Of a stretch of 64,000 bases of DNA, positions 19,242-41,949 are shown one piece after another. Where the stretch lies: assembly GCA_963837395.1 (NCBI GenBank), contig CAWINI010000003.1, forward strand, positions 430,889-494,888, written 5' to 3'. The position numbers and the translations under genes were made by a program. The notes under the pieces are model-generated. The model was not told the origin of the DNA and made no database searches. It saw only the letters and a list, made by a program, of their open reading frames with translations. Source of the DNA: an uncultured bacterium. GTDB lineage: Bacteria > Acidobacteriota > HRBIN11 > JAKEFK01. How positions within the stretch are numbered: the first letter of the stretch is position 1; the number at the start of each line of letters is the position of its first letter.

Positions 19242-20480
19242 TTAAACTCCGGTAAGTAAATGTCCCATTTTTTCTTTTTTAGTCCGGAGATATTTCAAAT
19301 TATTTCCAGTAGGTTCTATTTCAATCGGGACACGCTCTACAAGTTCCAATCCGTAACCCTTAAGGCCGACATATTTCGAAGGATTGTTTGTCATTAATCT
19401 CATTTTTTGAACGCCGAGTTCGCGCAAAATTTGCGCTCCAATTCCATAATCGCGTTGATCAGCTTTGAATCCTAGCGTCTCATTCGCTTCAACCGTATCT
19501 TCACCATGATCCTGCAATTCGTACGCTTTCAACTTATTCACAAGTCCGATTCCGCGGCCTTCGAATTTATCACCATGCAAATATAAAACAAGACCTTTGC
19601 CTTCTTGCTGGATCATTTCCAATGCTTTTTCCAATTGCTGTCCGCAATCACATCGCCAGGAATGAAAAATATCGCCGGTTAAGCATTGTGAATGAACCCG
19701 AACCAGCACCGCATCGTTCGGTTGAATATCGCCGCAAACGATTGCGAGGTGCACGGCATCATCAAGAATACTTTCATATGCTTTAACAGAAAATTCACCA
19801 AAACGGGTAGGAAGTCTGGTATCGGCAACTTTGCGAACCAGACGTTCGTTCGCCATGCGATATTGAATCAGATCTGCGATTGTAATCATCCGGATGCGAT
19901 GCTTCTTACAGAATTTCGTCAGTTGCGGAACACGCGCCATTGTTCCGTCATCATTCATTACTTCACAAATCACACCGGCAGGATACAAGCCAGCAAGCTT
20001 CGCGAGATCAACTGCTGCTTCGGTTTGTCCGGCACGACGCAATACGCCGCCCTTTCTTGTACGGAGTGGAAAGACGTGTCCGGGACGAGCTAAATCATAA
20101 GGTTTTGTTGCAGGATCGATCGCTGTTCGGATTGTTTTTGCGCGATCTTGCGCAGAGATTCCAGTAGTTACATCGTGCTTTGCTTCAATCGAAACGCAAA
20201 ATGCTGTTTCGTATTTTGCAGTATTTTCCGTGACTTGCATCGGGATCTGCAAATCATCAAGCCGTTCGCCAGTCATCGCCAGGCAAATTAACCCGCGGCC
20301 ATATTTAGCCATGAAATTAATTGCATCAGGTGTGATTTTTTCAGCAGCAATTGTCAAATCACCTTCATTCTCACGATCCTCATCATCAACAACCACAATC
20401 ATGCGTCCTTGACGGATCTCATCAAGCGCTTCAGGTATCGTAATAAATGGCAAATGAACTGACTTCCTTTTTAGACTCAC
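19242..20480 (-). CDS. ribBA: Bifunctional 3,4-dihydroxy-2-butanone-4-phosphate synthase / GTP cyclohydrolase II.
   Basis: '[18 protein letters not shown]' (RibB) and '[10 protein letters not shown]...CDCG' (RibA). Confidence 0.92.
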
Positions 20481-20516
20481 GACTCAGCCCCCGTTCGAAA
20501 CTGCGGCCTATCTAAT

Positions 20517-20593
20517 TTACCGCAGAGAACGCTGAGATCGCAGAATTAAATTTTTACCAGAATTTCTGCGTTCTCTGCATACTCTGGCGGTAA
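20517..20593. repeat. Imperfect palindromic REP-like element, TTACCGCAGAGAACGC...GCGTTCTCTGC...GGCGGTAA.
   Basis: Inverted arms are read directly. A second copy lies at 24437..24505 and a partial copy near 27888. Confidence 0.6.
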
Positions 20594-20599
20594 GAACAA

Positions 20600-21205
20600 T
20601 TACCGGCTCCGCAATCTCCCCTTATCATAGGTGTTTTTCACGACGCTGACAACATACCGCCCAATCATGTCCGTCTCAACATTGACGAGATCTCCCTTCT
20701 TTAAATCACTGAGATTAGTATGCTCCAGCGTATATGGAATCAGTGAGATTTCGATCCGATTCTTTTGCATTGCTGCAACCGTCAGGCTCACACCATTGAG
20801 CGCAATCGAACCTTTGGGAACACAATATTGTGCAAGGTTATAAGGCAATTTCACACAAAGCCTTACATCTTTGTTGTGATTCTTCCATTTGAGAGCTTGC
20901 GCGACACCTTCAACATGTCCTTGAACATAATGACCGCTGATGAAGGTTTGCGCGGTGATCGGCAATTCCAAATTTACACGCATCCCATTTTCTCGCTTGA
21001 GCAAATTCGTTCGAGACCATGTTTCAGGCGAGATATCTAGTGCGACTTTTTTGCCGGTGCGACGCGCGACTGTTAAACAAATTCCATCGACTGCAAGACT
21101 ATCACCGAGTTTCAATTTGGATGCAAGCGAACCAACCTTTAGAACTAAATGAGCTTTATCAATGGAAATGATTTTTCCAGTAGTTTCAATAATTCCATTA
21201 AACAT
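20600..21205 (-). CDS. ribE: Riboflavin synthase alpha subunit.
   Basis: 'MFNGIIETTGKI' and two lumazine-binding repeats. Confidence 0.9.
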   Translation of the reverse strand: MFNGIIETTGKIISIDKAHLVLKVGSLASKLKLGDSLAVDGICLTVARRTGKKVALDISPETWSRTNLLKRENGMRVNLELPITAQTFISGHYVQGHVEGVAQALKWKNHNKDVRLCVKLPYNLAQYCVPKGSIALNGVSLTVAAMQKNRIEISLIPYTLEHTNLSDLKKGDLVNVETDMIGRYVVSVVKNTYDKGRLRSR

Positions 21206-21252
21206 ATTTTTCTTACCGCGAAGGCACTGAGTCTCCGTTACTCCGTGGTTAA

Positions 21253-22323
21253 TTATTTGCGTAGTCGGACGATTACATCGCCATCTAATTCTTGAGGTGG
21301 ATCAACCTGGTATCGTTGCGTTTCAGAAAGCGATTGTTCCGGTCCGCCTAAAATATTCAAAAAGTGTTTTCCGGTTAGAAGTCGTGGAGCGATCATAAGG
21401 ACATATTCATCAATGAATCCGGATGTGTGAAACAAGGTGAAAATTTTTTGTCCGCCTTCAACAAGAATCTTTGAAAGTCCGCGTTTAAACAACGCCGGTA
21501 ACAAAGTGGAGATACCCTGGAATCGAAGAATATCAACGTTTTTGCGTTCGCGCCAAAGTCTTTCACGCTCTTGCGAAGCAGTTTCCGCACAACAAATCAA
21601 AACTGGAGCATCGCTTTCCAGAAGTGAACAATCGTCAGGATTCAACTTTAGACGGGAATCCAAAACAATCCGGATTGGTTTTCGGATAATTCCTGGAGTT
21701 CTAACTGTAAGATGCGGGCGATCCAGAATTACTGTATCAGCGCCCACCACCACTGCATCACATTGAGCGCGGAGATGATGCACCCAGGTCAAACTCCATT
21801 CATTTGTAATCCATCTTGAATTTCGATCTGCGGGTGAAATAATCCCATTTGCCGTCGTGCCAACTTTGGCGATGACATAAGGACGTTGTTTCAGAATCGA
21901 ATGAAAGAAAGGCGCATAGAAATATTTAACTGACGGCAATTCAATCTGTTCAACCGTAATTCCAGCAGTGAGCAATTGTTCCTGCCCTTTTCCATTTACC
22001 ATTGGATTTTGATCAATTGCCGAAAATACAACTCGCTTAATACCTGCATCTTTAATTGCATTCACGCAAGGCGGCGTTTTTCCTTGATGTACGCAAGGCT
22101 CTAAACTGCAATACAAAGTCGCATCCTTAGCAGCGGAGGCAGCTTTGCGAAGTGCGAGTACTTCTGCGTGAGGTTCACCGGCGGCTGGATGAAATGCAGT
22201 ACTTAACATTTGTCCATCTTTAACAACAACGGCACCAACAGATGGATTCGGTGATGTTTTGCCTGCATTTTGAATGGCAAGATGATATGCGAGATTTAAA
22301 TAATAATGATCCATTTCCACCAC
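21253..22323 (-). CDS. ribD: Bifunctional riboflavin biosynthesis deaminase/reductase.
   Basis: CMP/dCMP deaminase 'HAEVLAL...PCVHQGKTPPC' plus a RibD C-terminal reductase domain. Confidence 0.9.
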   Translation of the reverse strand: MVEMDHYYLNLAYHLAIQNAGKTSPNPSVGAVVVKDGQMLSTAFHPAAGEPHAEVLALRKAASAAKDATLYCSLEPCVHQGKTPPCVNAIKDAGIKRVVFSAIDQNPMVNGKGQEQLLTAGITVEQIELPSVKYFYAPFFHSILKQRPYVIAKVGTTANGIISPADRNSRWITNEWSLTWVHHLRAQCDAVVVGADTVILDRPHLTVRTPGIIRKPIRIVLDSRLKLNPDDCSLLESDAPVLICCAETASQERERLWRERKNVDILRFQGISTLLPALFKRGLSKILVEGGQKIFTLFHTSGFIDEYVLMIAPRLLTGKHFLNILGGPEQSLSETQRYQVDPPQELDGDVIVRLRK

Positions 22324-22335
22324 AGAGTCACAAAA

Positions 22336-23271
22336 TTATTCCAGTAATGCGTTGATGAATTTTGCCGGGTCGAATGGGATGAGATCATCAAGATCTTCCC
22401 CAACCCCTAAGAATTTAATGGGCACACCTAATTCTTTTGCAATGCTGACAACAATTCCGCCTTTCGCGGTGCCATCAATCTTGGTCAGGATAATTCCTGT
22501 AATCGGTGTGATATTCATAAATTCGCGGGCTTGAACAATTCCGTTCTGTCCAACCGTAGCATCCAGAACTAACCAGCTTTCATGCGGAGCGCCCGGAACT
22601 TCGCGCTGTGCAATCTTTCGCATCTTTGCCAGTTCTTGCATCAAGTTTGATTTTGTATGAAGTCTACCGGCTGTATCAATCAAAACAAGATCTTTGTTCT
22701 GCGCTTTCGCTGCGCTTAATGCATCAAACACCACTGCTGCCGGATCTGATCCTTGACTCTGTTTCAGCAAATCCACTCCAATCCGGTCAGCCCAGACCTG
22801 GAGTTGTTCAACAGCAGCTGCTCGAAAAGTATCTGCTGCACAAATCAACAATTTTTTGTTTTGTTTCTTGTATTCATGTGCGAGCTTTGCAATCGTTGTT
22901 GTTTTCCCAACTCCATTCACACCAATGATTAAAAATACTGCAGGTTTCGGATATCTTTTCTCCCACCATGGATCCGTATTTTTAAAGATCAGCATTAACT
23001 CATCGTGAATTAATTTCTTTACTGCTGCAGCATCGGATAGCTGATGACTTCTTACTCTTTCATTCACCAGGTCCATTAAATGCATCGTTAACCCGACTCC
23101 GATATCGGATTGCAGTAAGGCTTCTTCAAGCTGCGAAAGAATCTCATCATCGACTTCGCGGCCGATCTTCATCATGTTGTCGATCTGGGTGCCGAGCCCC
23201 TCTTTGGTCTTCTTCAGACCATTTTTGAGCTTTTGTAAAAACGTTTTCTCTTCGGTTATAAATTCAAACAT
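22336..23271 (-). CDS. ftsY: Signal-recognition-particle receptor FtsY.
   Basis: 'GVNGVGKTTTIAKLA', 'DTAGR' and 'TKIDGTAKGG'. Confidence 0.92.
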   Translation of the reverse strand: MFEFITEEKTFLQKLKNGLKKTKEGLGTQIDNMMKIGREVDDEILSQLEEALLQSDIGVGLTMHLMDLVNERVRSHQLSDAAAVKKLIHDELMLIFKNTDPWWEKRYPKPAVFLIIGVNGVGKTTTIAKLAHEYKKQNKKLLICAADTFRAAAVEQLQVWADRIGVDLLKQSQGSDPAAVVFDALSAAKAQNKDLVLIDTAGRLHTKSNLMQELAKMRKIAQREVPGAPHESWLVLDATVGQNGIVQAREFMNITPITGIILTKIDGTAKGGIVVSIAKELGVPIKFLGVGEDLDDLIPFDPAKFINALLE

Positions 23272-23616: not shown

Positions 23617-24390
23617 CTAATTGGGGGATTTCGAACAATTCAAACCTTTTATTGCCGCAATTGATTTTTGGGCGAAGTCACTGAGCGGGTCCACATCAAT
23701 TACTTTCTTGTAATATTCTCTCGCTTCACAAGGCAGATTTTGTTGTTGCAAAACCGTAGCCAGATGATAGCAAGCCTCAACACTGTCCGGAGCCAATTTC
23801 AAAATTTCTTTGAATTGAACTGCCGCTTCATCGAAGCGATTTAATTTTTCAAGAGAAAATGCATACACTAGACGCGGAGCTGTTTCTTTTGGCGAAAATT
23901 CCAAAACCTTTTTCGCCAGCGCGCGGGACTCTTCATATTGTTGTTCCGTGTATGCCAACTTCGACAGGTTGTAATACGGTCCCACTTTTGGATATTGAGG
24001 ATCTTCCAGAGCTTTCAAAAAGTGAACGCGAGCTTCTTTATTATTTTTTAACTCCATATATGCAATGCCCAGATTGTTATGAACATCGGAATATGTTGGA
24101 GCGATAGTGATTGCTTGCGTAAATGCGGGTACCGCATCTTGAAACTTTCCATCACAAAGATAAGCAATACCCAATGAATTCCAACCTTGCGCATCTTTTG
24201 GATATTTTTCCAGGAATTTATGATAAGCAGTAACTGCCTCTGCACATCGTTTGTGAATTAGAAATTGATCAGCTTGTTTTAACTCAGCGACAGGATTATC
24301 CGGTGTTTTGGGCGCCTTCATCTCTTTTTTGCTGCTGCAAGAAACGAACGACAGTGTAAGAATCAAAATTAAATAGCAAGCACACTTCAT
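23617..24390 (-). CDS. TPR-repeat lipoprotein.
   Basis: Lipobox 'LSFVSC'. Several TPRs ('AYHKFLEKYPKDAQGWNSLGIAY...'). The track start at 24459 translates a REP element, so the internal ATG is preferred. Confidence 0.7.
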   Translation of the reverse strand: MKCACYLILILTLSFVSCSSKKEMKAPKTPDNPVAELKQADQFLIHKRCAEAVTAYHKFLEKYPKDAQGWNSLGIAYLCDGKFQDAVPAFTQAITIAPTYSDVHNNLGIAYMELKNNKEARVHFLKALEDPQYPKVGPYYNLSKLAYTEQQYEESRALAKKVLEFSPKETAPRLVYAFSLEKLNRFDEAAVQFKEILKLAPDSVEACYHLATVLQQQNLPCEAREYYKKVIDVDPLSDFAQKSIAAIKGLNCSKSPN

Positions 24391-24509: not shown

Positions 24510-25898
24510 CTAGGCGACGGGTTGTCGGGGGCGGGGCCGTGAAGGTTTATGCAAGGTAACTTTGCCTTCTTCGCAAGCTCTTCCGAATGCATCAACAATT
24601 TTCGGATCGTATTTTACATTTGCCATGGTACGGATCCGATTTAATGCAAACTCCAATGTAAAAGCTTTTTGATACGGCCGATCAGTGGTCATTGCATCAA
24701 ATGTATCTGCAACTGTAATCACACGGCCAAACAGTGGGATATCTTCGCCTTTCAATCCCTGCGGATAACCACTGCCATCATAATTTTCATGGTGAGCACG
24801 CATTCCCGGAATAATGTCACGTAATTGTTCGATCTGCGCAAGAATTGCTGCACCTTTATCTGGATGCGTTTTCATAATTTCAAATTCATCAGGCGTAAGA
24901 TTGGTTGGCTTGCGAAGAATTCGATCATCAATTCCGATTTTGCCTACATCGTGCAGCAAAGCTGCGATTTCCAAACGCTCTAACTCTGCGGCACTGAATC
25001 CTAAAGAACGCCCAATTACCATGGTGTAGTCTTTTACACGCTCAGAATGTCCGCGTGTATACGGATCTTTTGCATCGATTGCTGCTGCAAGCATCCGGAT
25101 CGAACTCATAAACAATTCTTTGTTTTCACGCGCAGCAGCTTGAAGACCAAGAATGTTTTGTTTCACCTCATCTGTCATGTAATTGAAAGTGTCAGCAAGC
25201 TGTTGAATTTCGTTGCTTGCTTTCATCTCAATTTTTTTATCGAAGGTCTGATTGCGGCCAACATCCAGTGCGTGTTGTGCCAATTTTTGAATCGGCTGCG
25301 TAATCCACCGCGCAAATAAGAAGCCAACCACCGCAGCTAGAAGTGCAAATAGAATACTGAGTCCCACTGAAGAGCGGATCATTTGCCCTACGGATGCAAA
25401 TGCAACATCGCGTTCAATTTGAACGATGACTCCCCAGCCAACATCTTTCACTGCAGAATTGGATCCGAGAACTTCAAGCGTTTTATTTCCTTGCTTTTCT
25501 TCATATAACCGTACTGTAGAAACACGACCTTGTGTGCGAATGAAATCACTTACAATTGCAGTCTTAGAAAGATCGCGTCTTTGCTGCATATCTTGTTTTT
25601 TCGGACTTAAAATTAATTTCCCGTCATGATCTACAACATAAACATTGATTGCCCCAACACTTTCGTCATTCAAAATTTGAAACAATGGATCTGCACTAAC
25701 AATCACACTCAAAACGCCAATTATGTTGTCTGATGCATCCTTCAATGGTTCCGCAATTAGAATTACTGCAGTGTTATCTTCAGCGATGTAATAAGGATCG
25801 CTAATGAACGATTTACCCTGGATCGCAATATTGAATGCTTTTTCTTCTTCATCCATTACGCTTCTATCATCAAACTCAGGACGCTTTGCTCTAGGCAC
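24510..25898 (-). CDS. HAMP / HD-GYP phosphodiesterase, the C-terminal part of a Cache-type sensor. It is separated from 25891..26250 by a frameshift.
   Basis: 'LLHDVGKIGI', 'HHENYDGSGYP' and a HAMP domain after the TM. The frame is open upstream to about 25930. Confidence 0.8.
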   Translation of the reverse strand: MPRAKRPEFDDRSVMDEEEKAFNIAIQGKSFISDPYYIAEDNTAVILIAEPLKDASDNIIGVLSVIVSADPLFQILNDESVGAINVYVVDHDGKLILSPKKQDMQQRRDLSKTAIVSDFIRTQGRVSTVRLYEEKQGNKTLEVLGSNSAVKDVGWGVIVQIERDVAFASVGQMIRSSVGLSILFALLAAVVGFLFARWITQPIQKLAQHALDVGRNQTFDKKIEMKASNEIQQLADTFNYMTDEVKQNILGLQAAARENKELFMSSIRMLAAAIDAKDPYTRGHSERVKDYTMVIGRSLGFSAAELERLEIAALLHDVGKIGIDDRILRKPTNLTPDEFEIMKTHPDKGAAILAQIEQLRDIIPGMRAHHENYDGSGYPQGLKGEDIPLFGRVITVADTFDAMTTDRPYQKAFTLEFALNRIRTMANVKYDPKIVDAFGRACEEGKVTLHKPSRPRPRQPVA

Positions 25899-26250
25899 CT
25901 CTGCCTGATGGGGCGTAAACCGCTGCCTTGATCATGTTGAGATCTTTAAGAAATGTTGGCATTTCAGCTCGGACTGAAGGGGCATCAAGATTTCTAACAA
26001 ATTCTGATGCCTTTGGAGTTAATTCACGAATCTGATACCGGTAATTATCGATGTAAGATGAGATTCTTCCGGACACACTTGTAGAAATCGAAAAGAAACT
26101 TTCTTGAAGATTTGTTTGCAGCCCTTCCCGGTTATTTCGGATTAAGATGAACGAACTAACCGCTAACGGGATAACCCCAATCGCCAGGAATAGCAATGTC
26201 AATGTGACAAGTATGCTGTTCTTAATCTTCCGTTCAGTAAAGATTGCCAA
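25891..26250 (-). CDS. N-terminal TM and the start of a periplasmic Cache-like domain. It is probably the 5' part of the HD-GYP gene.
   Basis: TM 'ILVTLTLLFLAIGVIPLAV'. It overlaps the next ORF by 8 nt in another frame. Confidence 0.55.
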   Translation of the reverse strand: MAIFTERKIKNSILVTLTLLFLAIGVIPLAVSSFILIRNNREGLQTNLQESFFSISTSVSGRISSYIDNYRYQIRELTPKASEFVRNLDAPSVRAEMPTFLKDLNMIKAAVYAPSGRGA

Positions 26251-26276: not shown

Positions 26277-27875
26277 TTACTTCTTTTTTTCGGAGATGAC
26301 CTCGTAAACTTTGGTCATCTGTTCCAAACCTTTGAGACTGAATTCGCCTAGTTCCTTAATTTCGAAATGATCCTTAACAAGTTCATACGTATTGGCTCCA
26401 ATGACGATCTGTCCGGGCTTTGCAACCCCCGTTTCAATTCTTTGGGCAATATTCACAGTGTTTCCAAGAACAGTGTATTCAATACGTTTTGGTGAGCCGA
26501 TATCACCAGCTACAACAGGACCGCTGTTGATGCCAATTCGAACGTTGATTTTTTGTTGGCCAAACTTTTCATCATTGAACTCGTTCAGTTTCTCACGCAT
26601 TTCCAGAGCTGTCTTCACCGCGCGTACGGCGTGATCTTCCATTGCTAACGGTGCACCGAACACAGCCATGATTGCATCGCCAATAAACTTGTCCAGTGTC
26701 CCTTCATATTTAAAAATGATTTCGGTCATTTCGCCAAAATATTCATTCAGCAAAAGTGCAACCCGATGCGGCTCCATCTTTTCTGACATTCCGGTGAAAC
26801 CGACAATATCTGAAAAGATCACGGTCGTATCTACTTCCTGAGCATCGAGTGATTGATCGCTTTCGGTGGCATTTAAGATTCGATTAATTACTGACGGAGA
26901 GTGATAGCGTTCCAATTGTCCACGCCGTTTAATTTCTTCCTTAATCTTTTCGTTCAATCTTGCTTGCTCAATTCCGATTGCCGCGTAATTCGCCAGAGCT
27001 GTGAGTAAATCAAGATCCGCCGGCGTGAATGTTCCGGTGCGTGTTGTGGAATCAACAAACACAACACCGATTACATCATCTTTGTTCCATAATGGTGCAC
27101 ACATCGCGGAACGGATGTTATGAAAAATAATGCTGGCCCCTCCATCGAAACGCGGATCAAAAAGTGCATCAGAAGTCAAAATTGAGACTTTGTCTGTGAA
27201 GACTTTATTCGTAATCGTTTTGCTGATTGTGATTTTTCCCACGTCAGCTTGCGGATCGTGATACTTCACAACTTTTGGAATCAAATCGCGAGAGTGCTCA
27301 TCATAAAGCATCAAAAAACCGCGTTCCGCATTTAAGTGTTCAAAGATTAAGTTCATCACAAGATTTAAAACTTCATCAAGAGGTTGCACTGTAAGCAGTG
27401 ATTTTGCAACTTGAATCAGAATTGCCAGAATCTGATTACTTTTTTGAATATCACTAAGTACAGGTTGTTCTTCTGGTTTGCTTTCCGGAATTAGATCCGG
27501 AATAAATTTTTGAAGTTCGCTGATCGGTTTTATAAAGGTACCTGGACTTAGAAAATTATCTCCAGTATCCTGCAATTGAACTTTATCATCCGTGGTTTTT
27601 GTAAAGCGGAGCAAAAATTTACCGAGATTGATTTCATCACCATCACGCAAATCGCCACGCGTTACAAGAATGTTATTCACGCGGGTCCCGTTACGGGAAT
27701 TTAAATCGACAATGTAGGATTCTTTATCGTTGAGTGAAATGCGGCAATGATGGCGGGAAACACCGAAGTCATTAATGATGATGTCATTATCGGATGCACG
27801 TCCGATTGAGACATCACTCTTTTCAACCGGAAAGGAAGTTGTTTTATCCCCCTCCTTATAGACCAGCTTATACAT
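26277..27875 (-). CDS. FHA-GAF-class III adenylate/guanylate cyclase.
   Basis: FHA 'VSIGRASDNDIIINDFGVSRHHCRI...SRNGTRVNN'. Cyclase 'TVIFSDIVGFT' and 'KFIGDAIMAVFGAP'. Confidence 0.85.
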   Translation of the reverse strand: MYKLVYKEGDKTTSFPVEKSDVSIGRASDNDIIINDFGVSRHHCRISLNDKESYIVDLNSRNGTRVNNILVTRGDLRDGDEINLGKFLLRFTKTTDDKVQLQDTGDNFLSPGTFIKPISELQKFIPDLIPESKPEEQPVLSDIQKSNQILAILIQVAKSLLTVQPLDEVLNLVMNLIFEHLNAERGFLMLYDEHSRDLIPKVVKYHDPQADVGKITISKTITNKVFTDKVSILTSDALFDPRFDGGASIIFHNIRSAMCAPLWNKDDVIGVVFVDSTTRTGTFTPADLDLLTALANYAAIGIEQARLNEKIKEEIKRRGQLERYHSPSVINRILNATESDQSLDAQEVDTTVIFSDIVGFTGMSEKMEPHRVALLLNEYFGEMTEIIFKYEGTLDKFIGDAIMAVFGAPLAMEDHAVRAVKTALEMREKLNEFNDEKFGQQKINVRIGINSGPVVAGDIGSPKRIEYTVLGNTVNIAQRIETGVAKPGQIVIGANTYELVKDHFEIKELGEFSLKGLEQMTKVYEVISEKKK

Positions 27876-27944
27876 CTCTACGGACTCCGCGAGTTTTGCG
27901 GTAAAAATTCTTACGGCTAAGAACCGTCTTTAGCACATTAGGCT

Positions 27945-28703
27945 TTAGCTTTCCTTCTCCGTATCAAATGCAGAAGATATTTTCTGCGCTTCAGGTTGTT
28001 GCTGCTGTTGTTGTTGAGATGCGGCCGGTTCTTTTGTTAACCCCATCTTCCGTTTTAAATCATCCAGCGCCTGATCAACTTTTACCTTTCCCGTTAGCTG
28101 ATCCAATTGTTTATCCAGCTCATCACCCTCGCTTACCGCAATTTTATCGTATGCCGCCAGCTTATCGGATTGCTCTTGTATCTGTGATGCAGCATTGTCG
28201 AAGGTGCTCATTGCACCATCAATATTGTATTTATCGGTAATCTCAAGCATTTTGCGTTGAGCTTCATTCATTGCAGCAATCGATTTCAGCTCACCTAGCT
28301 TCCGGATTTTTTCCTGAACTTTTTCTTCTTCAACTTTTAATTTGGCGCGCGAAGCATCCGCTCGAACTTTTGCACTCTTATACATTTGATCTGCACGATC
28401 CAGTTCACCTTGTGCTTCAATTTGTAGTTGGAGAGCACGGCGTGCGAGCTTTTCATTGCCCTGGGTCAAAGCTTCTTCAGCTTGTGTTTGTAATGTTTTT
28501 ACGCGCTCCCTCTTCACTTTAAATTCCCTTTCCTGGCGCGCTTCAAACCCCAATGTCATTGCTGTCGCCTCACGGAGGGACTTCAGGCTTTCCAGCATTT
28601 CCCGAACCGTCTGTTCCAACATGGGAACAGTCATTTGTGATTCGGTCTTCCCCATTAACCAGTTGAACATCGCGGAAAACATCCGACGTACGCGCTGAAA
28701 CAT
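27945..28703 (-). CDS. PspA/IM30 (Vipp1) family protein with a C-terminal poly-Q tract.
   Basis: 'MFQRVRRMFSAMFNWLMGKTE...' and a long coiled coil. SD aaggagg lies 6 nt upstream. Confidence 0.8.
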   Translation of the reverse strand: MFQRVRRMFSAMFNWLMGKTESQMTVPMLEQTVREMLESLKSLREATAMTLGFEARQEREFKVKRERVKTLQTQAEEALTQGNEKLARRALQLQIEAQGELDRADQMYKSAKVRADASRAKLKVEEEKVQEKIRKLGELKSIAAMNEAQRKMLEITDKYNIDGAMSTFDNAASQIQEQSDKLAAYDKIAVSEGDELDKQLDQLTGKVKVDQALDDLKRKMGLTKEPAASQQQQQQQPEAQKISSAFDTEKES

Positions 28704-28785
28704 ACTGTCCTCCTTAGCTTTACAGGCGAGTCAACAAACGACTAGTCTGAAATTATAGCATAGTAAATATTATAGAAATTCTGGC

Positions 28786-28845
28786 TGTAGTGGCGACCGG
28801 AAAGTCGCCTGCTATCAAACTAGGCGACCTTCCGGTCGCCACTAC
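28786..28845. repeat. Nested 24-bp-arm palindrome, TGTAGTGGCGACCGGAAAGTCGCC...GGCGACCTTCCGGTCGCCACTACA.
   Basis: One mismatch between the arms, and each arm is itself palindromic. A second copy lies at 46219..46283. Confidence 0.8.
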
Positions 28846-28886
28846 AAATGCATTTTAGAAAAGACGCAAAAATTTCCCGTAAGTTC

Positions 28887-28915
28887 TTGACTAAGAAATA
28901 TTCCTAGTTGATAAT
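28887..28915 (+). promoter_or_regulatory. Sigma70-like promoter candidate (TTGACT, 17 bp spacer, GATAAT) for the Rieske/cytochrome b operon.
   Basis: Motifs are read about 65 nt upstream of the ATG at 28980. Confidence 0.35.
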
Positions 28916-28979
28916 CTTGCTTGTGTTTTTTTGATTTTTTTTCTGCACTTCATAAACCGTCACTGCAAAAGAGAGGAGC

Positions 28980-29474
28980 ATGGCAGAGGCGATCTCCCGT
29001 AGAAAGTTCTTTTCCTGGTTAGGTTTAGCGTGGGGCGCATTTGCCGCCTCTATGGGCGTGGCATTGACTGCCACCATGCGCTTCCTATTTCCTAACGTCT
29101 TATTTGAACCTCCATCGTCATTTATTGCCGGATTTCCTGAAGACTATGCAGTCAACAAAGTTGATGAACGTTGGAAGGAAAAACGTGCATGCTGGATTGT
29201 TCGTACGAATGAAATCATTTATGTACTCAGTACCGTTTGTACACATTTAGGATGTACTCCGAATTGGCTGGAAGCGGAAAACAAATTTAAGTGTCCTTGT
29301 CATGGCAGCGGTTTTTACATGACTGGAATCAATTTTGAAGGTTCAGCTCCGCGGCCATTAGAACGTTTTAGAATCTCAATCGCTGATGATGGCCAATTAG
29401 TTGTAGATAAAAGCAAAAAATTTCAACAGGAAAAGGGTGAATGGAGCGATCCCGAATCGTTCGTTCGAGTTTAG
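28980..29474 (+). CDS. Rieske [2Fe-2S] subunit of a cytochrome bc-type complex.
   Basis: Tat-like 'SRRKFFSWLG'. Cluster boxes 'CTHLGC' and 'CPCHGS'. Confidence 0.88.
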   Translation: MAEAISRRKFFSWLGLAWGAFAASMGVALTATMRFLFPNVLFEPPSSFIAGFPEDYAVNKVDERWKEKRACWIVRTNEIIYVLSTVCTHLGCTPNWLEAENKFKCPCHGSGFYMTGINFEGSAPRPLERFRISIADDGQLVVDKSKKFQQEKGEWSDPESFVRV

Positions 29475-29503
29475 AAATTTAACCACAGAACTAGGGAAGG
29501 AAA

Positions 29504-30292
29504 ATGGCACCACCAAAACGCGGCATTTGGTCTCAAATAACGCGCTCACAAGTTTGGAAATCAATTTTCCGGCATTCTGTGCCGAAAGATACACGCGGGC
29601 GCGCACTCGCAGTTCTCAACAATGTATTTTTGCATTTGCATCCTGTGCGTATTCGAAAATCCGGAATCGCGCTCGGTTATACATGGTGCATGGGTGGGCT
29701 AACTTTTTTTCTTTTCCTGGTTGAAGTGTTCACCGGTCTGCTGTTGATGTTCTATTATCGTCCAACTCTGGAATATGCATATATGGATATCGTGGAGTTG
29801 GGTGAGCAGGTTCCATTGGGTGTAATGCGCGAATTACATCGGTGGGGCGCACACGCAATGGTAATCACGGTTTGGCTCCACATGTTGCGCGTATTTTTAA
29901 CTGGAAGTTATAAACCACCACGTGAGTTTAACTGGATCGTTGGAGTACTTCTTTTGGTGCTTACATTGTTGCTGAGCTTTACAGGATATTTGTTGCCCTG
30001 GGATCAATTAGCAATTTGGGCTATCACTGTTGGATCCAACATGGCGCGTGCAACTCCGTTCTTAGGGCATGAAGGTCCAGGTGCAAGCCTTTTGAAAATT
30101 GGCGATCTTGCAATGGTTCATGCCGGAGATGATGCGCGATTTGCGCTTTTAGGCGGACGCTTTGTTGGCGCTGGAGCGTTATTGAGATTTTACGTTTTGC
30201 ATTGCGTGGCAATTCCAGTTGTTGCAAGCATCCTGATGGCAGTTCACTTCTGGCGCGTTCGTAAAGATGGCGGAATTTCCGGACCGATGTAG
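29504..30292 (+). CDS. Cytochrome b, N-terminal (b6-like) half of a split cytochrome b.
   Basis: Four TM helices with conserved His pairs ('HRWGAHAMV', 'HMLRVF'). Confidence 0.8.
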
Positions 30293-30300
30293 GAGACGTT

Positions 30301-31044
30301 ATGGAGTTCTTCAAATCTATAGTTAATGTCCTTACAAATCCTCCGATTCTAATCTCGACTGCAATGATCCTGTTTCTCATTGTGGTAAACCTGCGCGGAT
30401 TCTGGAAACCACTTCCTGCAAAAATCCTTTTCGCACTCGCCGCCGCCTTCATGCTCATCAGCATTCAAGATCCAAACTTTAGAAAAATTGTTGTCGCACC
30501 TGATAACGTTCCAATTGTAGGAATGCTTTTCCTGGTTGGATTTTTTGTGTGGTACGCACTGTATAAAGCGAAATCAAATGATGAACGCTTAGAACAAAAT
30601 TTGCCGGTACGTGAAGCGGAAGATAATGAAAAAGTTTTGGTGTGGCCGAATCTTGTTTACACTGAAATGATCTGTCTCGTGATTTGTACCGCGATTCTGA
30701 CAATCTGGGCAATCGGTTTGAAAGCTCCATTAGAGGCGCCGGCCAATCCTGCTGATTCACCCAATCCATCCAAAGCACCATGGTATTTTCTCGGCCTTCA
30801 AGAAATGCTTGTTTATTACGATCCATGGCTGGCGGGAGTTGTGTTTCCAAGTCTGATCATTTTTGGATTGATGGCAATTCCATTCATTGATGTAAATCCA
30901 AAAGGCAGCGGCTACTACACATTCAAAGAAAGGAAATGGGAAATTTCGATTTTCCTTTTCGGTTTTGTGATCCTGTGGGTCATGTTAATCACGCTTGGAA
31001 CATTTTTGCGCGGCCCAAACTGGAACTTCTTTGGGCCCCTATGA
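30301..31044 (+). CDS. Cytochrome b C-terminal half, subunit IV-like.
   Basis: TM protein directly after cytochrome b6. 'PEWY'-region-like 'PWYFLGLQEML'. Confidence 0.7.
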   Translation: MEFFKSIVNVLTNPPILISTAMILFLIVVNLRGFWKPLPAKILFALAAAFMLISIQDPNFRKIVVAPDNVPIVGMLFLVGFFVWYALYKAKSNDERLEQNLPVREAEDNEKVLVWPNLVYTEMICLVICTAILTIWAIGLKAPLEAPANPADSPNPSKAPWYFLGLQEMLVYYDPWLAGVVFPSLIIFGLMAIPFIDVNPKGSGYYTFKERKWEISIFLFGFVILWVMLITLGTFLRGPNWNFFGPL

Positions 31045-31377
31045 ATTTTGGGATGTACACAAAGTTCTCGTTTTAAACAACGTTAATTTATCGGAATATT
31101 TTTGGGTAATTGCCTTAGGCAAAGGGTTGCCATCACAATGGTGGCTCCGTGAAAGCCTCGGATTTTTGTTAGTCGGCTTTTACATTCTGGTGCTTCCAGT
31201 TTTGCTGGCAAAAACAATCTTCAAACGGTTTTACGTAAAGATGGGACCGGCAAGATTTTACATCGGTGTTTTTTTATTTTTAGCGATGTTTGCATTACCG
31301 CTAAAAATGTATTTACGCTGGCTATTTAACTTGAAGTACATAATCGCTATACCGGAGGCCTTCTTTAATATATAGAA

Positions 31378-31465
31378 AATCGTAATCTTACTCTTACTCG
31401 TACTCGTAATCGGAAAAAACGAATCGAGTAAGAGTAAGAGTAAGAGTACGATTACGAGTACGATT
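31378..31465 (+). repeat. Hexamer-repeat hairpin element, copy A. AATCGTA-(CTYNTA)n, loop, (TAAGAG/TACGAG)n-TACGATT, ending 2 nt before the ATG at 31468.
   Basis: Left arm aatcgtaatcttactcttactcgtactcgtaatcg, loop gaaaaaac, right arm gaatcgagtaagagtaagagtaagagtacgattacgagtacgatt. Confidence 0.8.
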
Positions 31466-31467
31466 TT

Positions 31468-34365
31468 ATGGCAAAGAAAGACTCAGATCACGCATACGAC
31501 ATCAATAAGTTGAACATGTTTTTTGCGATTTCCAGCATCATCATGTTCGCATTTTTTGCATGGATGTTATGGCAGGATTTCAATCGTGATTGGAAACGTG
31601 TTCAAGCTCAATTCCGGCGTTTAGAAAAAGCTCGTACTGCATCACTCATACAAAAAGAAGAAGCTACGCTCCAAAGCAATCCGGAATACACAAAAGTTCA
31701 GCAAGAATTAGAAGCAGCAAAAGCGGAACAAAAACAGCAACAAGCTGAATTCGAAAAAGCACAGAAAGATCAAAAAGACATTCAGGGAGTGTGGTACAAG
31801 GCGGATCAGGCATTTCGATTTAAGAAGGCAGAATATGAAGCCAAGCGCTACGATTATGAAGAAGCAGAGGCTGAGCATCCGAAAAGTGCCGCAAAAAAGA
31901 AGGAAGAGCTTGATAAAAGTTTTAATGCTATGCAAGATCTCCAGCACAAACTAGATGAAGTGAATGGCAAGAAATCGGCAATCGATGCGAATGTAGAAAA
32001 ATACACGAAACGGATCGATGATCTGGACAAAGAAAAGACAAAGATTCAGACGAAGTTAGATCGGATGGAACGCAAGGAGGCTAATTTTTCGGCTTCCCCT
32101 GCAAATATTTTCCGCAATCTTCCATTAGTTGATTTCATCGGACCTTCCATCAAAATTCAGCAGGTTGTTGTTGACAATATATATGAAGATATCAACTTCA
32201 CCCGAATTCAACGTGTCGATCGCTGTATGACCTGCCATGCATCAATTGATCAGGATGGATATAACGAAGGCGACAAAATTCCGGACTACGGCGAGATCAA
32301 ACAGCCATTCGTTTCACATCCGAAGTTAGATATTTTCGTTGGTACTACATCAAAGCATCCGATGGATCGATTCGGATGCACTTCATGTCATCTTGGAAGA
32401 GGACGTTCTACAGATTTTGTTGGTGCTGTTCATGTTCCGGACAATGAGGAAGAAAAGAAGCGTTGGGAAAAAGATCATGATTGGCACAAGATGCATCATT
32501 GGGAATATCCGATGTATCCAAAGAGCATGGTGGAAGCTTCGTGCATTAAATGCCATCAAGGTGTTGCTCAAATTCCTGGCGGCGAAAAAATCAACGTGGC
32601 TCGATATCTGTTCATTGAAAACGGTTGTCATGGCTGCCATCTGACAAAAGGATTTGAAAATCTTCCGAAAGTTGGCCCGGATTTGCATCATATTAGCAGC
32701 AAGGTAACGAAAGAATGGGCTTTCAAATGGATCAAAAATCCAAAAGCTTTTCGTCCGACTACACGTATGCCCCGTTATTTCGGAAACTCTAACAACAGCG
32801 ATCCTGAAGATGTTGCACGTAATGAAGTTGAAATCCGATCGATGGTTGAGTATCTATTCGCAAAAGCTGAACCGATCGATTATGAACCTGTAACACTTTC
32901 CGGCGATCCAGCAAACGGCAAAACGCTCGTTCACGACCTGGGATGCGTAGGATGCCATCTGGCAGAAGGAGATACGCCATCTGGCATAAATACCCGCCGC
33001 CGTTTCGGGCCGCCATTGGTGAAGCTGGGATCGAAGACAAATGCTACCTGGCTGTTTAACTGGTTAAAAGAACCCCGCAATTATGCACCACAGACCCGGA
33101 TGCCCAACATGAAGCTAAGCGATCAAGAAGCAATGGACATCGCTGCTTATTTGCTATCAATTCGAGATACGGCATGGGAAGGGCAAAAAGTTCCGACTCT
33201 TCAAGAAAAATATTTGAAAGATGAAATCGTATTCCATTTAAAACGGCAGTACGGTATTGCAGCAGAAGAACAATACAACAAAATGTCTGAGCAAGAACGC
33301 TGGATGTTCTTAGGTGAAAAATCGATCTCACGTTACGGCTGTTCCGGTTGTCATTTGATACCCGGATTTGAAACAGCAAAAGGGATCGGTACATCGCTTT
33401 CGGAAGAAGGAAGCAAGAAAGTTACAAAGTTTGATTTTGGATTTGTTGATATTGAACATGAAGTACCGGATTACATCACACAAAAATTGCATGATCCGCG
33501 TTCATTTGATCATGAACGTGTGAAACGGTGGGATGAAAAGTTGATCATGCCCAATTTTGATTTCAGTAATGAAGAAACTGCATCACTGACAATGTTGATC
33601 ATGGGATTGACCAATGAGCGCGTTCCGGCAGAGTCGCAGGCAGTGCTGAATGATAGTCAGCAAGTTGCAGAACGTGGGCGTTGGTTAGTATTGCAGAAAA
33701 ATTGTGTCGCATGTCACAACATTGATGGATGGGGCGGTGAAATTCGTGAAGTCATCAAAGAAGAAGGAATGGCCCCGCCGTTGCTGATTGAAGAAGGTGA
33801 TAAAGCGCAATCAGATTGGTTGTTCCAATTTTTGAAAGCGCCGGGGCATATTCGTCCGTGGTTAAAAGTACGAATGCCGAATTTCCGGTTATCGGATGAA
33901 GAAGCGAATACGCTGGTGCAATTCTTTATGGCGGCAACAAAGAGTGGTCCGTTTAATAGTCCACCTGATATTACAAATCATCTTGCAGAAGGCGAGCACA
34001 TCTTCAAAACATTCCAGTGTTCAGTGTGTCACGTTATTCAAGGAGTTGTTCCTCCAAACAGAGCTGCGGCAGATCTTGCACCGGATCTCAGCATGGCGCG
34101 AACCAGATTGCGTGCGAGCTGGATTTTGAAATGGTTGGAAGATCCGCAAAAATTACAGCCCGGCACTCGTATGCCTGACTTCTTCCCTGAGGCAGCGATG
34201 CCAGGTGTTTTGAATGGCGATCCGAATTTGCAAAAGGAAGCGATCCGCAACTATATTTACAGCCTCGGCCAGGGAAATCTTGCATCGATTTTGAGTCCGG
34301 CAGAAGCTGCGTGGTATGAACCTAAAAAAGCGCACGCGACTGCAGAGAATGTTGGAACAAAATAG
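31468..34365 (+). CDS. Membrane-anchored multihaem c-type cytochrome with eight CxxCH motifs.
   Basis: CMTCH, CTSCH, CIKCH, CHGCH, CVGCH, CSGCH, CVACH, CSVCH. N-terminal TM and K/E-rich coiled coil. Four repeats of 'W.F.W.K.P...TRMP'. Confidence 0.85.
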   Translation: MAKKDSDHAYDINKLNMFFAISSIIMFAFFAWMLWQDFNRDWKRVQAQFRRLEKARTASLIQKEEATLQSNPEYTKVQQELEAAKAEQKQQQAEFEKAQKDQKDIQGVWYKADQAFRFKKAEYEAKRYDYEEAEAEHPKSAAKKKEELDKSFNAMQDLQHKLDEVNGKKSAIDANVEKYTKRIDDLDKEKTKIQTKLDRMERKEANFSASPANIFRNLPLVDFIGPSIKIQQVVVDNIYEDINFTRIQRVDRCMTCHASIDQDGYNEGDKIPDYGEIKQPFVSHPKLDIFVGTTSKHPMDRFGCTSCHLGRGRSTDFVGAVHVPDNEEEKKRWEKDHDWHKMHHWEYPMYPKSMVEASCIKCHQGVAQIPGGEKINVARYLFIENGCHGCHLTKGFENLPKVGPDLHHISSKVTKEWAFKWIKNPKAFRPTTRMPRYFGNSNNSDPEDVARNEVEIRSMVEYLFAKAEPIDYEPVTLSGDPANGKTLVHDLGCVGCHLAEGDTPSGINTRRRFGPPLVKLGSKTNATWLFNWLKEPRNYAPQTRMPNMKLSDQEAMDIAAYLLSIRDTAWEGQKVPTLQEKYLKDEIVFHLKRQYGIAAEEQYNKMSEQERWMFLGEKSISRYGCSGCHLIPGFETAKGIGTSLSEEGSKKVTKFDFGFVDIEHEVPDYITQKLHDPRSFDHERVKRWDEKLIMPNFDFSNEETASLTMLIMGLTNERVPAESQAVLNDSQQVAERGRWLVLQKNCVACHNIDGWGGEIREVIKEEGMAPPLLIEEGDKAQSDWLFQFLKAPGHIRPWLKVRMPNFRLSDEEANTLVQFFMAATKSGPFNSPPDITNHLAEGEHIFKTFQCSVCHVIQGVVPPNRAAADLAPDLSMARTRLRASWILKWLEDPQKLQPGTRMPDFFPEAAMPGVLNGDPNLQKEAIRNYIYSLGQGNLASILSPAEAAWYEPKKAHATAENVGTK

Positions 34366-40218: not shown

Positions 40219-41949
40219 ATGGCGCGGTTAGTGCTGAATCCGGGCCAAACAAATGAGCAGGTCTTTGATTTAAAAAAAGGACCAACCACTATCGGTCGGG
40301 CTAAAGAAAACGACATTGTCATTCTGGACGCAAGTCTGTCTCGCATGCACGCCCGTGTCGATGTAAATGGTGATCGGATCGTTTTAAGCGATCTGCAAAG
40401 CAGTAATGGCACTTTCGTAAATGGCGATCGGATCACGCACTGCGTCTTGAAACACGGCGATACAGTAATGTGCGGCGATGTTGCACTTCAGTTCCGTGAA
40501 GATCTCCACATCCTTCATGAAATTTCTTCAGGTGTTCGCAAAGGATTTGCAGAATTACTTGTAGTTGATAAACCGCGCGATAAGGTAAGTACCTCTGCGT
40601 TAAAAATCAAACAAAAAGATGCTCAGCAGAGATCAAAAGACAAACTTCAAATCCTGCTGGAAGTCAGCGAATTACTTTCCAATCCTGAAGAGATCGATGT
40701 TTTGCTTCAAAAAATTGTGGAATTTTTGTTCGTGATCATGGATGTAGATCGCGCTGCAATTCTGATGGTGAACGAAGAAACTGGAATTCTTGAGCCGCGC
40801 ATTACGAGATCCGGTGTTGAAGTGCATGAAGGTGAAACCATATACAGCCGCAGTATTGTAAATTATGTTTTGCAAAAAAATGTTTCAGTTATTTCATCCG
40901 ATGCACGCGAAGATCCGAGATTCGGAGACACAGGATCGATCATGCGCCAGTCAATTCGATCTTCCATCTGTGTACCTTTAAAAACCCGTGACAAAGTGAT
41001 CGGCGTTTTGTATGTGGATAATGTATCAGTACCGATGAGATTTATCGCAGAGGATCTGGAATTCTTAAGCGTATTTGGAAATCAAGCTGCGGTAGCAATT
41101 GAAAATTCTAAGCTGTACAACAAGATCGAAGAAGATGCCAGAGGCCGTGAGCAGGAATTAATGTCACTTGTGGAAGATCGTACGCGCAATCTGCAGGTCG
41201 AAAAAGAGAAAGCAGAAAAAGCGATGTCTGTAGCTGAAGAAGCAAATAAATTTAAAAGCCAATTCCTGGCCAACATGAGTCACGAATTGCGGACGCCATT
41301 AAATGCAATCATCGGTTACAGCGAAATGTTGCAAGAGGAAGCGGAAGAACTTGGCGTATCCGATTTAAATGGTGATTTGCAAAAAATTCAAGCTGCAGGA
41401 AAACATCTTCTGGCGCTGATCAATGACATTCTCGATCTATCAAAAATCGAAGCCGGCAAAATGGAATTGTTTCTGGAAAATTTCGGACTAACCGGATTAC
41501 TGGATGAAGTGGTCACAACAGTTCGGCCGCTGATGAAGAAAAACAACAACACATTGATATTTGAATCGAATCAAAACCTTGGTTCGATGCATGCGGATGT
41601 GACTCGTGTTCGCCAGGTATTGTTTAATTTGTTAAGCAATGCATCCAAGTTCACTAAAGATGGAAAAGTTTCGCTAGCAGTTGATAAGGGCACTGAAAAT
41701 GGTTCGGGATGGATTACTTTTCGCGTTTCTGATACCGGCATCGGAATGACATCGGAACAAGTGGGACGATTGTTCCAGGCATTTTCACAAGCGGATGCTT
41801 CTACCTCGCGCAAATATGGCGGTACAGGTTTAGGACTGGTAATCAGCCTGCGATTCTGCCAGATGATGGGCGGAACAATTACGGTAGAAAGTGAACCAAA
41901 TGCCGGCACCACGTTTACTGTAAAGCTTCCTGCACTGGTCTCTGTTTAA
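40219..41949 (+). CDS. FHA-GAF-histidine kinase.
   Basis: FHA 'TTIGRAKENDIVILDASLSRMHARV...SSNGTFVNG'. H-box 'SHELRTPLNAI'. G-box 'GGTGLGLVIS'. Confidence 0.88.
   Translation: MARLVLNPGQTNEQVFDLKKGPTTIGRAKENDIVILDASLSRMHARVDVNGDRIVLSDLQSSNGTFVNGDRITHCVLKHGDTVMCGDVALQFREDLHILHEISSGVRKGFAELLVVDKPRDKVSTSALKIKQKDAQQRSKDKLQILLEVSELLSNPEEIDVLLQKIVEFLFVIMDVDRAAILMVNEETGILEPRITRSGVEVHEGETIYSRSIVNYVLQKNVSVISSDAREDPRFGDTGSIMRQSIRSSICVPLKTRDKVIGVLYVDNVSVPMRFIAEDLEFLSVFGNQAAVAIENSKLYNKIEEDARGREQELMSLVEDRTRNLQVEKEKAEKAMSVAEEANKFKSQFLANMSHELRTPLNAIIGYSEMLQEEAEELGVSDLNGDLQKIQAAGKHLLALINDILDLSKIEAGKMELFLENFGLTGLLDEVVTTVRPLMKKNNNTLIFESNQNLGSMHADVTRVRQVLFNLLSNASKFTKDGKVSLAVDKGTENGSGWITFRVSDTGIGMTSEQVGRLFQAFSQADASTSRKYGGTGLGLVISLRFCQMMGGTITVESEPNAGTTFTVKLPALVSV

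Follow-up and report, generated by a model that had tools for sequence, protein, structure and literature searches.

Introduction

Class IIIb adenylyl cyclases, such as CyaB from Pseudomonas aeruginosa, CyaC from Spirulina and CyaB1 from Anabaena, share a catalytic domain with a common residue set that includes a Lys and a Thr, and they are regulated by fused sensor domains acting through a helical linker. Here we describe a locus encoding a predicted cyclase of this kind, which carries FHA and GAF domains and is followed by the gene for an HD-GYP protein. The locus lies in a stretch of 64,000 nucleotides (nt) from an uncultured soil bacterium of the Acidobacteriota (GenBank assembly GCA_963837395.1, contig CAWINI010000003.1, positions 430,889 to 494,888 of the forward strand), which was analyzed over its full length and is hereafter called the window. 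The window cyclase has the catalytic domain, the residue set and the linker-coupled sensors in common with the enzymes above. What sets it apart from known class IIIb cyclases is its conserved pairing with an HD-GYP gene, which has not been described previously. Cya1 of Synechocystis is another FHA-bearing cyclase; we found no citable statement on an FHA domain in CyaD or Cya1, and we know of no FHA-GAF-cyclase that has been characterized biochemically.

An FHA domain N-terminal to a cyclic di-GMP (c-di-GMP) enzyme, implying a phosphothreonine input, occurs in Synechocystis Slr1102-1104, which have the architecture FHA-...-GGDEF-EAL (PMC10124867, Table 1). In the window the output is instead a class III cyclase (or, in a paralogue, a histidine kinase), and a GAF domain is interposed.

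The HD-GYP proteins RpfG (Xanthomonas campestris), PmGH (Persephonella) and V-cGAP1-3 (Vibrio cholerae) share the HD...HHExxDGxGYP core with the window protein. These known enzymes have REC or GAF input domains, whereas the window protein has a periplasmic dCache domain and a HAMP domain. Glu185 of PmGH is a metal ligand; the window residue aligned with it is a Tyr, as in V-cGAP3.

The third protein of interest belongs with PspA, IM30, Vipp1 and LiaH, with which it shares the full-length PspA_IM30 domain and an N-terminal amphipathic segment. Among the genes scanned beside the window pspA we found none for PspBC, PspF, LiaI, liaFSR or PspM; the neighbors are the Rieske/cytochrome b genes on one side and the cyclase gene on the other. 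Unlike in the Psp and Lia systems, the downstream neighbors of pspA are thus second-messenger enzymes. In two systematic surveys of PspA neighborhoods (PMC11237479, PMC9239133), cyclase, FHA and HD-GYP proteins do not figure among the partners, and no precedent for a neighborhood of FHA, GAF, cyclase and PspA was found in the literature that we searched.

Finally, a 113-amino acid (aa) protein encoded further downstream shares the fold of the Roadblock/LC7 proteins MglB and LAMTOR2/3 (TM score ~0.7). It is highly divergent from these, and its gene abuts that of an SRP-type (signal recognition particle) GTPase, ftsY, rather than that of a small Ras-like GTPase. All components of the locus belong to known families; only the gene arrangement is new.

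Results

The Cyclase and HD-GYP Genes Form a Conserved Pair

We compared about 100 homologous loci, obtained by homologue look-ups and two collection scans (individual loci are designated by L and a number). The closest were metagenome-assembled genomes of Acidobacteriota, and loci of the window's own clade were gathered by looking up exact proteins and by scanning metagenomes with PspA. Genes for the cyclase and for a dCache-HAMP-HD-GYP protein were adjacent, and in the same order, in relatives at 49-97% cyclase identity. All loci of the window's clade had the pair, as did L003/L005, L006, L008, L015 and L085/L086, where the cyclases are 49-57% identical to that of the window. The gap between the two genes ranged from 4 to 89 nt in nine measured loci, and in L085/L086 the genes overlap by 20 nt. 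Even where the downstream genes have changed, as in L088 and L008, the pair persists. The cyclase and the dCache-HD-GYP gene are the conserved core of the locus.

Below about 46% cyclase identity the orthologous HD-GYP partner is gone. In Thermoanaerobaculia, a different arrangement was found (L029 and L053; also L040 and, in part, L033), in which genes for a dCache_3-HAMP-Ser/Thr kinase, a GAF-HD-GYP protein and the FHA-GAF-cyclase form a co-directional, tightly spaced array (6104-11620 in L029, 6041-11617 in L053). Of all the data, this independent array argues most strongly that the cyclase acts together with an HD-GYP enzyme and receives a kinase input. A ligand shared by the GAF domains of the two proteins is unsupported, as the GAF of the Thermoanaerobaculia GAF-HD-GYP protein and that of its neighboring cyclase are only 24% identical.

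Kinase genes adjoin homologous cyclase genes in L029, L053, L013, L020, L025 and L031. Besides the loci with the three-gene array, four loci have clusters of kinase/FHA genes that lie 2-5 kb upstream of the cyclase. Overall, a kinase was located within 10 kb of the cyclase homologue in 19 of 84 loci among the matches listed, a frequency that, by a rough estimate, is only modestly above chance in kinase-rich genomes. Still, because kinase and GAF-HD-GYP genes stand immediately upstream of the cyclase in Thermoanaerobaculia, an input from a Ser/Thr kinase to these cyclases is plausible in general. Full-length FHA-GAF-cyclase homologues also occur in Nostoc, Calothrix, Spirulina, Gemmatimonadota and Desulfobacteraceae.

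The Cyclase Has the Residues of a Class IIIb Adenylyl Cyclase

Pfam assigned three domains to the 532-aa cyclase protein: FHA (PF00498, E = 2.5e-18, nt 27621-27812), GAF (E = 3e-15, nt 26970-27380) and Guanylate_cyc (PF00211, E = 3.5e-38, nt 26313-26831), the last spanning residues 349-521. An earlier reading of this DNA, made from the sequence only, had called the protein an FHA-GAF-class III nucleotidyl cyclase and had named catalytic residues missing from an alignment as a finding that would refute its proposal. All six of these residues were present: the metal-binding Asp pair (D356 and D400), the transition-state residues N475 and R479, and the substrate-specifying residues K396 and T468, the latter a Thr where class IIIa enzymes have an Asp. 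All six are invariant among 18 homologues down to 53% identity. We take the combination of K396 and T468 to be the adenine-specifying pair of class IIIb in the classification of Linder and Schultz, and from the whole set of six residues the protein is therefore predicted to be a homodimeric class IIIb adenylyl cyclase. Its best relatives of solved structure are P. aeruginosa CyaB (3r5g), Synechocystis Cya2 (2w01) and Spirulina CyaC (1wc1).

In the FHA domain the residues that contact phosphothreonine (G25-R26, S40-R41-x-H43 and N62-G-T) are intact and invariant in the 18 homologues, so that this domain is a predicted phosphothreonine reader. The NK[FY]DE motif of GAF domains that bind cyclic nucleoside monophosphates (cNMPs) was not found anywhere in the protein; we accordingly rejected a cNMP-binding GAF of the PDE2 or CyaB1 type, and the feed-forward by cyclic AMP (cAMP) known from CyaB1 would not be expected here. 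Among solved structures, the GAF domain is nearest to that of PmGH, a GAF-HD-GYP protein. No transmembrane-like segment was detected in the cyclase protein, which is predicted to be cytosolic.

The HD-GYP Protein Resembles Cyclic-Dinucleotide Phosphodiesterases

The protein encoded next to the cyclase consists of dCache_1, HAMP and HD_5 (PF13487, E = 4e-41) domains according to Pfam, and its catalytic motifs LLHDVGK and HHENYDGSGYP are intact. The domains are those of the sequence-only reading (transmembrane segment, Cache, HAMP, HD-GYP), but in the window they are not encoded by a single open reading frame (ORF). A 119-aa ORF comprises the first transmembrane segment and the N-terminal half of dCache, and it overlaps by 8 nt a 462-aa ORF in another frame. 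Alignment with L001, L004 and L097 revealed an uncompensated 1-nt insertion near position 25896. Deleting one base there restores a protein of 579 aa, a length equal to that of the L001 and L004 orthologues, with transmembrane-like segments at residues 8-39 and 289-318 and thus the order transmembrane segment, dCache, transmembrane segment, HAMP.

At least four genes of the window show such frameshift-like breaks, two of which we verified against intact orthologues. The second verified case is the C-terminal subunit of cytochrome b: one nucleotide is inserted into a GGGG run near 31039, and the subunit appears as two pieces (247 + 126 aa) in place of the single 357-aa gene of L001 and L088. 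The others are a break at a histidine kinase/REC junction (near 1040-1130) and one at a kinase/TPR junction (about 53280-53400). The related contigs are products of long-read assembly, and in one of them, L002, many genes are split. Since a pseudogene is hardly to be expected for a respiratory subunit, and given the origin of the relatives' sequences, the breaks are probably indel errors of long-read assembly; at least three other genes being broken in the same way, the HD-GYP break is probably of that kind too.

The solved chains closest to the HD-GYP domain are V-cGAP3 (5z7c) and PmGH (4mcw), at 125-129 bits, and the best NCBIfam match of the protein, although below its cut-off, is a c-di-GMP phosphodiesterase family. 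Judging from these matches, the substrate would most probably be a cyclic dinucleotide (c-di-GMP or 3'3'-cyclic GMP-AMP, cGAMP) and not cAMP. The HD-GYP domain being nearest to cyclic-dinucleotide phosphodiesterases, the cyclase and the phosphodiesterase therefore probably use different messengers.

In the Window's Clade the Pair Stands behind pspA

In the window's clade, all 15 loci with informative sequence, not counting the window itself, have pspA as the next gene upstream of the cyclase. The gap between the two genes was 6-126 nt in 14 measured loci including the window, and in six of them it was at most 36 nt, which leaves no space for a terminator plus a promoter. Within the clade, identity to the window proteins is 75-98% for PspA and 60-97% for the cyclase (some alignments end at contig edges). 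The clade is not shallow, as the Roadblock-like proteins and the N-terminal parts of dCache are only 40-48% identical. The pspA neighborhood is a real feature of gene order, in one clade only.

The PspA protein scored 88.3 bits with PspA_IM30 (cut-off 33.9 bits), covering profile positions 3-217 of 220; with the NCBIfam equivalogs of PspA and LiaH its scores remained far under the cut-offs. Behind the N-terminal amphipathic segment and a Q-rich linker of variable length, it ends in the C-terminal peptide QKISSAFDTEKE (window 27945-27990), which is invariant in an alignment of five orthologues. Mean column identity is 90% along the whole protein, so that the conservation of this tail is weak evidence. 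A docking motif is one possibility for the peptide, a C-terminal extension similar to that of Vipp1 another.

A promoter-like site, TCGCCA-16-TATAAT, precedes pspA, and another is directed at the Rieske gene; no sigma-54 -24/-12 element was seen in the spacer between these two genes on inspection by eye. Within the 69-nt spacer between pspA and the cyclase, a weak hairpin is followed by a run of five T (27927-27903). In L004 the hairpin is stronger and the T-run is the same; L097 has an interrupted T-run, and nothing comparable occurs in loci with spacers of 6-36 nt. The element may represent an attenuator or a leaky terminator. Counts of terminator-like and promoter-like sites were equal to or below the expectation from shuffled sequence, hence single sites of either kind weigh little. 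The most economical reading would be that pspA and the cyclase gene are co-transcribed, possibly with some attenuation after pspA.

The spacer of L004, the closest relative, also contains (1705-1822) an extra, strongly folding palindromic insert, rich in GGATGCC/GGCATCC, that the window does not have; the minimum free energy of the region is about -52 kcal/mol. This insert may be another mobile element similar to repetitive extragenic palindromes (REPs), serving as a terminator. A REP-like palindrome is found in the pspA/Rieske spacer of the window (28786-28846). It is composed of two inverted arms of 25 nt (GTAGTGGCGACCGGAAAGTCGCC), each with a small palindrome inside, and it recurs at 46220-46282, both copies being intergenic. 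Because of this second copy, and because the spacer of the 97%-identical L004 has no counterpart, we regard the palindrome as a dispersed REP-like repeat and rejected it as an operator or enhancer site of pspA.

Neighboring Genes and Other FHA, Kinase and cNMP-Binding Proteins

The features discussed in this work are listed in Table 1. ORF listing and Pfam scans, with strong statistics, confirmed all ten minus-strand genes, and each gene and domain named in the sequence-only reading was found at the coordinates given there. The string continues into ftsY, ribD, ribE and ribBA with gaps of 0-119 nt (starting at pspA: 69, 26, 50-119, 3, 0 and 12 nt). Genes for the TPR protein, the Roadblock-like protein and FtsY follow the pair in the window's clade and in L003/L005, and they follow the cyclase in Sulfidibacter, which lacks the HD-GYP gene. 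L085 has no Roadblock gene, and L088 has neither TPR, Roadblock nor ftsY genes. The HD-GYP, TPR and ftsY genes are kept beside those 49-57% identical cyclase orthologues that have other upstream genes.

Table 1. Features of the Window, with Positions, Strand and Basis of Assignment
Feature	Position (nt)	Strand	Basis
pspA, 252 aa	27945..28703	-	PspA_IM30 (PF04012), E=7e-25
Hairpin + T5 in pspA-cyclase spacer	27903..27927	-	Consensus scan; weak
FHA-GAF-cyclase, predicted class IIIb adenylyl cyclase, 532 aa	26277..27875	-	Pfam
TM-dCache_1-TM-HAMP-HD-GYP gene (TM, transmembrane segment)	24510..26250	-	Pfam; ORFs 25891-26250 + 24510-25898
TPR protein, lipoprotein-like signal	23617..24390 (ORF 23617-24459)	-	Pfam TPR families
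Protein of predicted Roadblock/LC7 fold, 113 aa	23272..23613	-	AlphaFold + Foldseek
ftsY, SRP receptor GTPase	22336..23271	-	Pfam SRP54, E=1.8e-78, + SRP54_N
ribD, ribE, ribBA (riboflavin synthesis)	19242..22323	-	Pfam
cNMP-binding protein, 158 aa	18762..19238	-	Pfam PF00027, E=1e-21
Divergent pspA/Rieske intergenic region	28704..28979	.	Promoter-like hexamers in both directions + palindrome
Rieske / cytochrome b N / cytochrome b C / multi-haem cytochrome c operon	28980..34365	+	Pfam
FHA-GAF-HisKA-HATPase histidine kinase, cytosolic	40219..41949	+	Pfam
Hanks-type Ser/Thr protein kinase	53281..54981	-	Pfam Pkinase, E=1e-51
HisKA-HATPase kinase running into REC-GGDEF-like protein	2..2244	+	ORF overlap 1039-1132

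The TPR repeats proposed earlier were recovered. As for the proposed lipoprotein nature, it holds in the form of a lipobox-like signal, MKCACYLILILTLSFVSC, with which the protein starts when read from an internal Met; the 257-aa L004 orthologue is annotated with the same Met as its start.

For the 113-aa protein, Pfam gave one sub-threshold match, to MAPKK1_Int, and none to Robl_LC7; the orthologue in L003 reached 17.6 bits with Robl_LC7, against a cut-off of 23 bits. The structure predicted by AlphaFold (mean predicted local distance difference test score, pLDDT, 83.6) shows the order alpha-beta-beta-alpha-beta-beta-beta-alpha, and a Foldseek search of the PDB with this model retrieved the Roadblock protein 7yh1, LAMTOR2/3 and MglB (probability 1.0, TM score ~0.72). 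The protein is thus predicted from its model to have the Roadblock/LC7 fold, as had been claimed. Its family is small, with 68 representatives at E <= 1e-3 in 1.8 billion proteins. The stop codon of its gene abuts the start of ftsY, and the same arrangement is seen in L003 (14309-14662) and in L009 from the cultured Sulfidibacter corallicola M133 (12603-12956). A role of the protein towards FtsY is pure speculation.

Between ribBA and ffh, in the same co-directional string, lies a gene that the sequence-only reading had overlooked. It encodes a stand-alone cNMP-binding domain with an intact phosphate-binding cassette (FGEMAL...RSA), homologous to the cNMP-binding domains of PKA, PKG and CRP, and it is kept in L001, L004 and, in part, L006. 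This 158-aa protein is a candidate receptor for cAMP, the predicted product of the cyclase. At Rfam gathering thresholds, no FMN riboswitch or other RNA was detected in the whole window.

Divergent from pspA, as proposed, is a bc-type operon of Rieske, cytochrome b and multi-haem cytochrome c genes, an unusual respiratory module. The multi-haem cytochrome c has 965 aa, and its gene is followed on the plus strand by those of a HEAT-repeat and a DinB_2 protein (31468-35924 for the three), an order conserved in L001 and L088. Adjacency of this operon to pspA is conserved within the same clade only, and as evidence of "energy stress" it is only thematic.

A second FHA-GAF protein indeed has a HisKA + HATPase output, and its FHA-GAF module is collinear with that of the cyclase (31% identity over 329 aa, against the N-terminal 320 aa of the cyclase; E = 1e-43). 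At the start of the window, a hybrid kinase had been described as ending in a degenerate GGDEF motif. The motif, AGDDF, is there (nt 1876-1890), in a REC-GGDEF-like ORF (1039-2244); the single protein is not, as the kinase ORF ends at 1132. The Ser/Thr kinase gene at 53281 has a C-terminal tail that looks out of frame and overlaps a TPR ORF (52646-53398), into which the kinase probably continues after a frameshift. This kinase had been suggested as an input to the circuit. It lies 25 kb off, in a different gene string, and nothing ties it to either FHA protein.

Discussion

Taken together, these data lead us to favor, with slightly more confidence than doubt, the reading that the cyclase and the HD-GYP protein are a conserved second-messenger pair of Acidobacteriota, which in the window's lineage forms the distal part of a transcription unit led by pspA. 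In the proposed scheme, the FHA domain of a cytosolic cyclase dimer would dock on a protein whose phosphothreonine is written by a Hanks-type kinase encoded elsewhere in the genome. The GAF domain would bind a small ligand and would be coupled to the catalytic dimer by a helical linker (...EQARLNEKIKEEIKRRGQLERYHSPSVINRIL...). The partner would be an inner-membrane sensor in which a periplasmic dCache domain controls, through HAMP, an HD-GYP domain hydrolyzing c-di-GMP or 3'3'-cGAMP. Upon periplasmic, metabolic and phosphorylation cues, the pair might then raise cAMP and lower the cyclic dinucleotide, or the reverse, and cNMP-binding proteins, for instance the 158-aa one encoded downstream, might sense the cAMP. 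In the window's clade, PspA would be expressed from the shared promoter region, and the membrane-protective protein and the signaling pair would therefore be co-regulated; no direct contact between PspA and the cyclase is implied. The coupling that we propose is one of gene order only.

The sequence-only reading had gone further, suggesting a phosphothreonine-controlled circuit for envelope and energy stress. The part that stands is FHA-gated cAMP signaling paired with an HD-GYP protein, which, as a prediction, is well supported both by the residues and by the conservation of two independent arrangements. The circuit as a whole is only partly supported, because the link to pspA is confined to the window's clade and the PspA coupling does not extend beyond it. 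Direct coupling to PspA, the kinase at 53281 as an input and the connection with energy stress are conjecture.

Several observations weigh against the pair or its association with pspA. Two loci at 49% cyclase identity or more, L007 and L009 of Sulfidibacter corallicola, have the cyclase without the HD-GYP gene, and they are the sole exceptions in that range. Upstream of the 49-57% identical cyclase orthologues, the place of pspA is taken by plsY/gpsA or by a gene for an outer-membrane protein, while PspA orthologues at 57-60% identity adjoin genes for S41 peptidase/uvrA or glyQS/GAF-GAF. The hairpin and T-run behind pspA in the window and L004 make a partial uncoupling of the two genes possible. 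Moreover, the HD-GYP gene is frameshifted in the window, and its sequence does not reveal the substrate specificity of the product. The gene of the candidate cAMP receptor is 7 kb off, beyond housekeeping genes, and the organism is known from metagenomes only.

Some of these points would fit a simpler view, in which function is limited to the cyclase/HD-GYP pair. The TPR-Roadblock-ftsY-rib genes, the bc operon and pspA, the last with its own transcript, would then be bystanders in a compact genome. In a sister clade the pair is kept without pspA and pspA stands beside S41 peptidase/uvrA or glyQS genes; this view would also account for the hairpin and T-run, and for the silence of the surveys of PspA partners (PMC11237479, PMC9239133) about cyclase, FHA or HD-GYP neighbors. 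On the other hand, pspA precedes the cyclase in all 15 informative loci of a clade that is deep, judging from its Roadblock and dCache sequences; six loci have spacers of 6-36 nt, too short for a terminator and a promoter; the T-run is not conserved in L097; and in L088, where downstream synteny is broken, pspA, cyclase and HD-GYP genes are still together. We consider it unlikely, while giving it more weight than any other alternative, that pspA is a mere bystander. The opposite extreme, namely the full circuit of the sequence-only reading, would make PspA an integral component (e.g., as the FHA's phospho-partner through its Thr-containing peptide), with the kinase at 53281 writing the mark and membrane or energy stress gating cAMP. 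Its appeal lies in the adjacency of pspA and the cyclase throughout the clade, the invariant tail after a linker of variable length, the intact binding residues of the FHA domain and the Ser/Thr kinases that adjoin FHA-GAF-cyclases elsewhere. Phosphorylation of PspA is purely assumed, however, and the tail means little in a protein so highly conserved everywhere; the kinase, 25 kb away, is not syntenic with either FHA gene, and the PspA link is absent outside one clade. Such a circuit appears improbable to us. The specific version in which a Hanks kinase marks the SAFD-T-EKE tail on the flexible Q-rich linker of PspA, which then docks on the FHA domain, is a shade less probable again. If it were true, recruitment of PspA to damaged membrane would free or activate the cyclase, converting membrane stress into a cAMP pulse, a relay from PspA to a second messenger that is not known in any Psp system.

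As for the nature of the pair itself, the HD-GYP protein could hydrolyze the product of the cyclase (cAMP or cGMP), making the two a classical couple of synthesis and degradation. HD-GYP genes do recur beside FHA-GAF-cyclases in two unrelated architectures (dCache-HAMP-HD-GYP downstream, GAF-HD-GYP upstream), and the window revealed no further cAMP phosphodiesterase. Yet the closest solved relatives, at 125-129 bits, are phosphodiesterases for c-di-GMP or cGAMP, the best NCBIfam match points the same way, and no HD-GYP protein with cAMP activity was found in the literature searched, so we give a common messenger little chance. The uncompensated insertion at 25896 relative to three relatives might instead be real, in which case the HD-GYP sensor would be a pseudogene and the cyclase unopposed. 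Decay of this kind is quite improbable, considering that at least three other genes in 64 kb (cytochrome b C-terminal, histidine kinase/REC, kinase/TPR) are broken alike, one of them an essential respiratory subunit, that both halves of the HD-GYP gene are still about 95-97% identical to intact orthologues, and that the related contigs are long-read assemblies, with many split genes in L002. Lastly, padloc matched the cyclase domain to PycC models and the cNMP-binding protein to the nucleotide-binding part of an effector, as if the two were a Pycsar-like anti-phage system. Matches of this type are generic and would be obtained with every class III cyclase and every cNMP-binding domain. No effector domain of the TIR or transmembrane type is present in the cNMP-binding protein, which is encoded 7 kb away beyond ftsY and the rib genes; the Lys/Thr substrate residues specify a purine, and the locus occupies a fixed position in the core genome across genera. 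With generic domain matches and no effector domain, we rejected the Pycsar reading, which has hardly any probability left.

Acidobacteriota are among the most abundant bacteria in soil and, to our knowledge, almost nothing is known about their signaling. Conserved in two arrangements, the cyclase/HD-GYP pair therefore offers a concrete case in which cross-talk among Ser/Thr phosphorylation, cAMP and cyclic dinucleotides can be tested. If the clade-specific recruitment of pspA to this pair is functional, it would moreover represent a regulatory context for PspA that is missing from current surveys of Psp partners.

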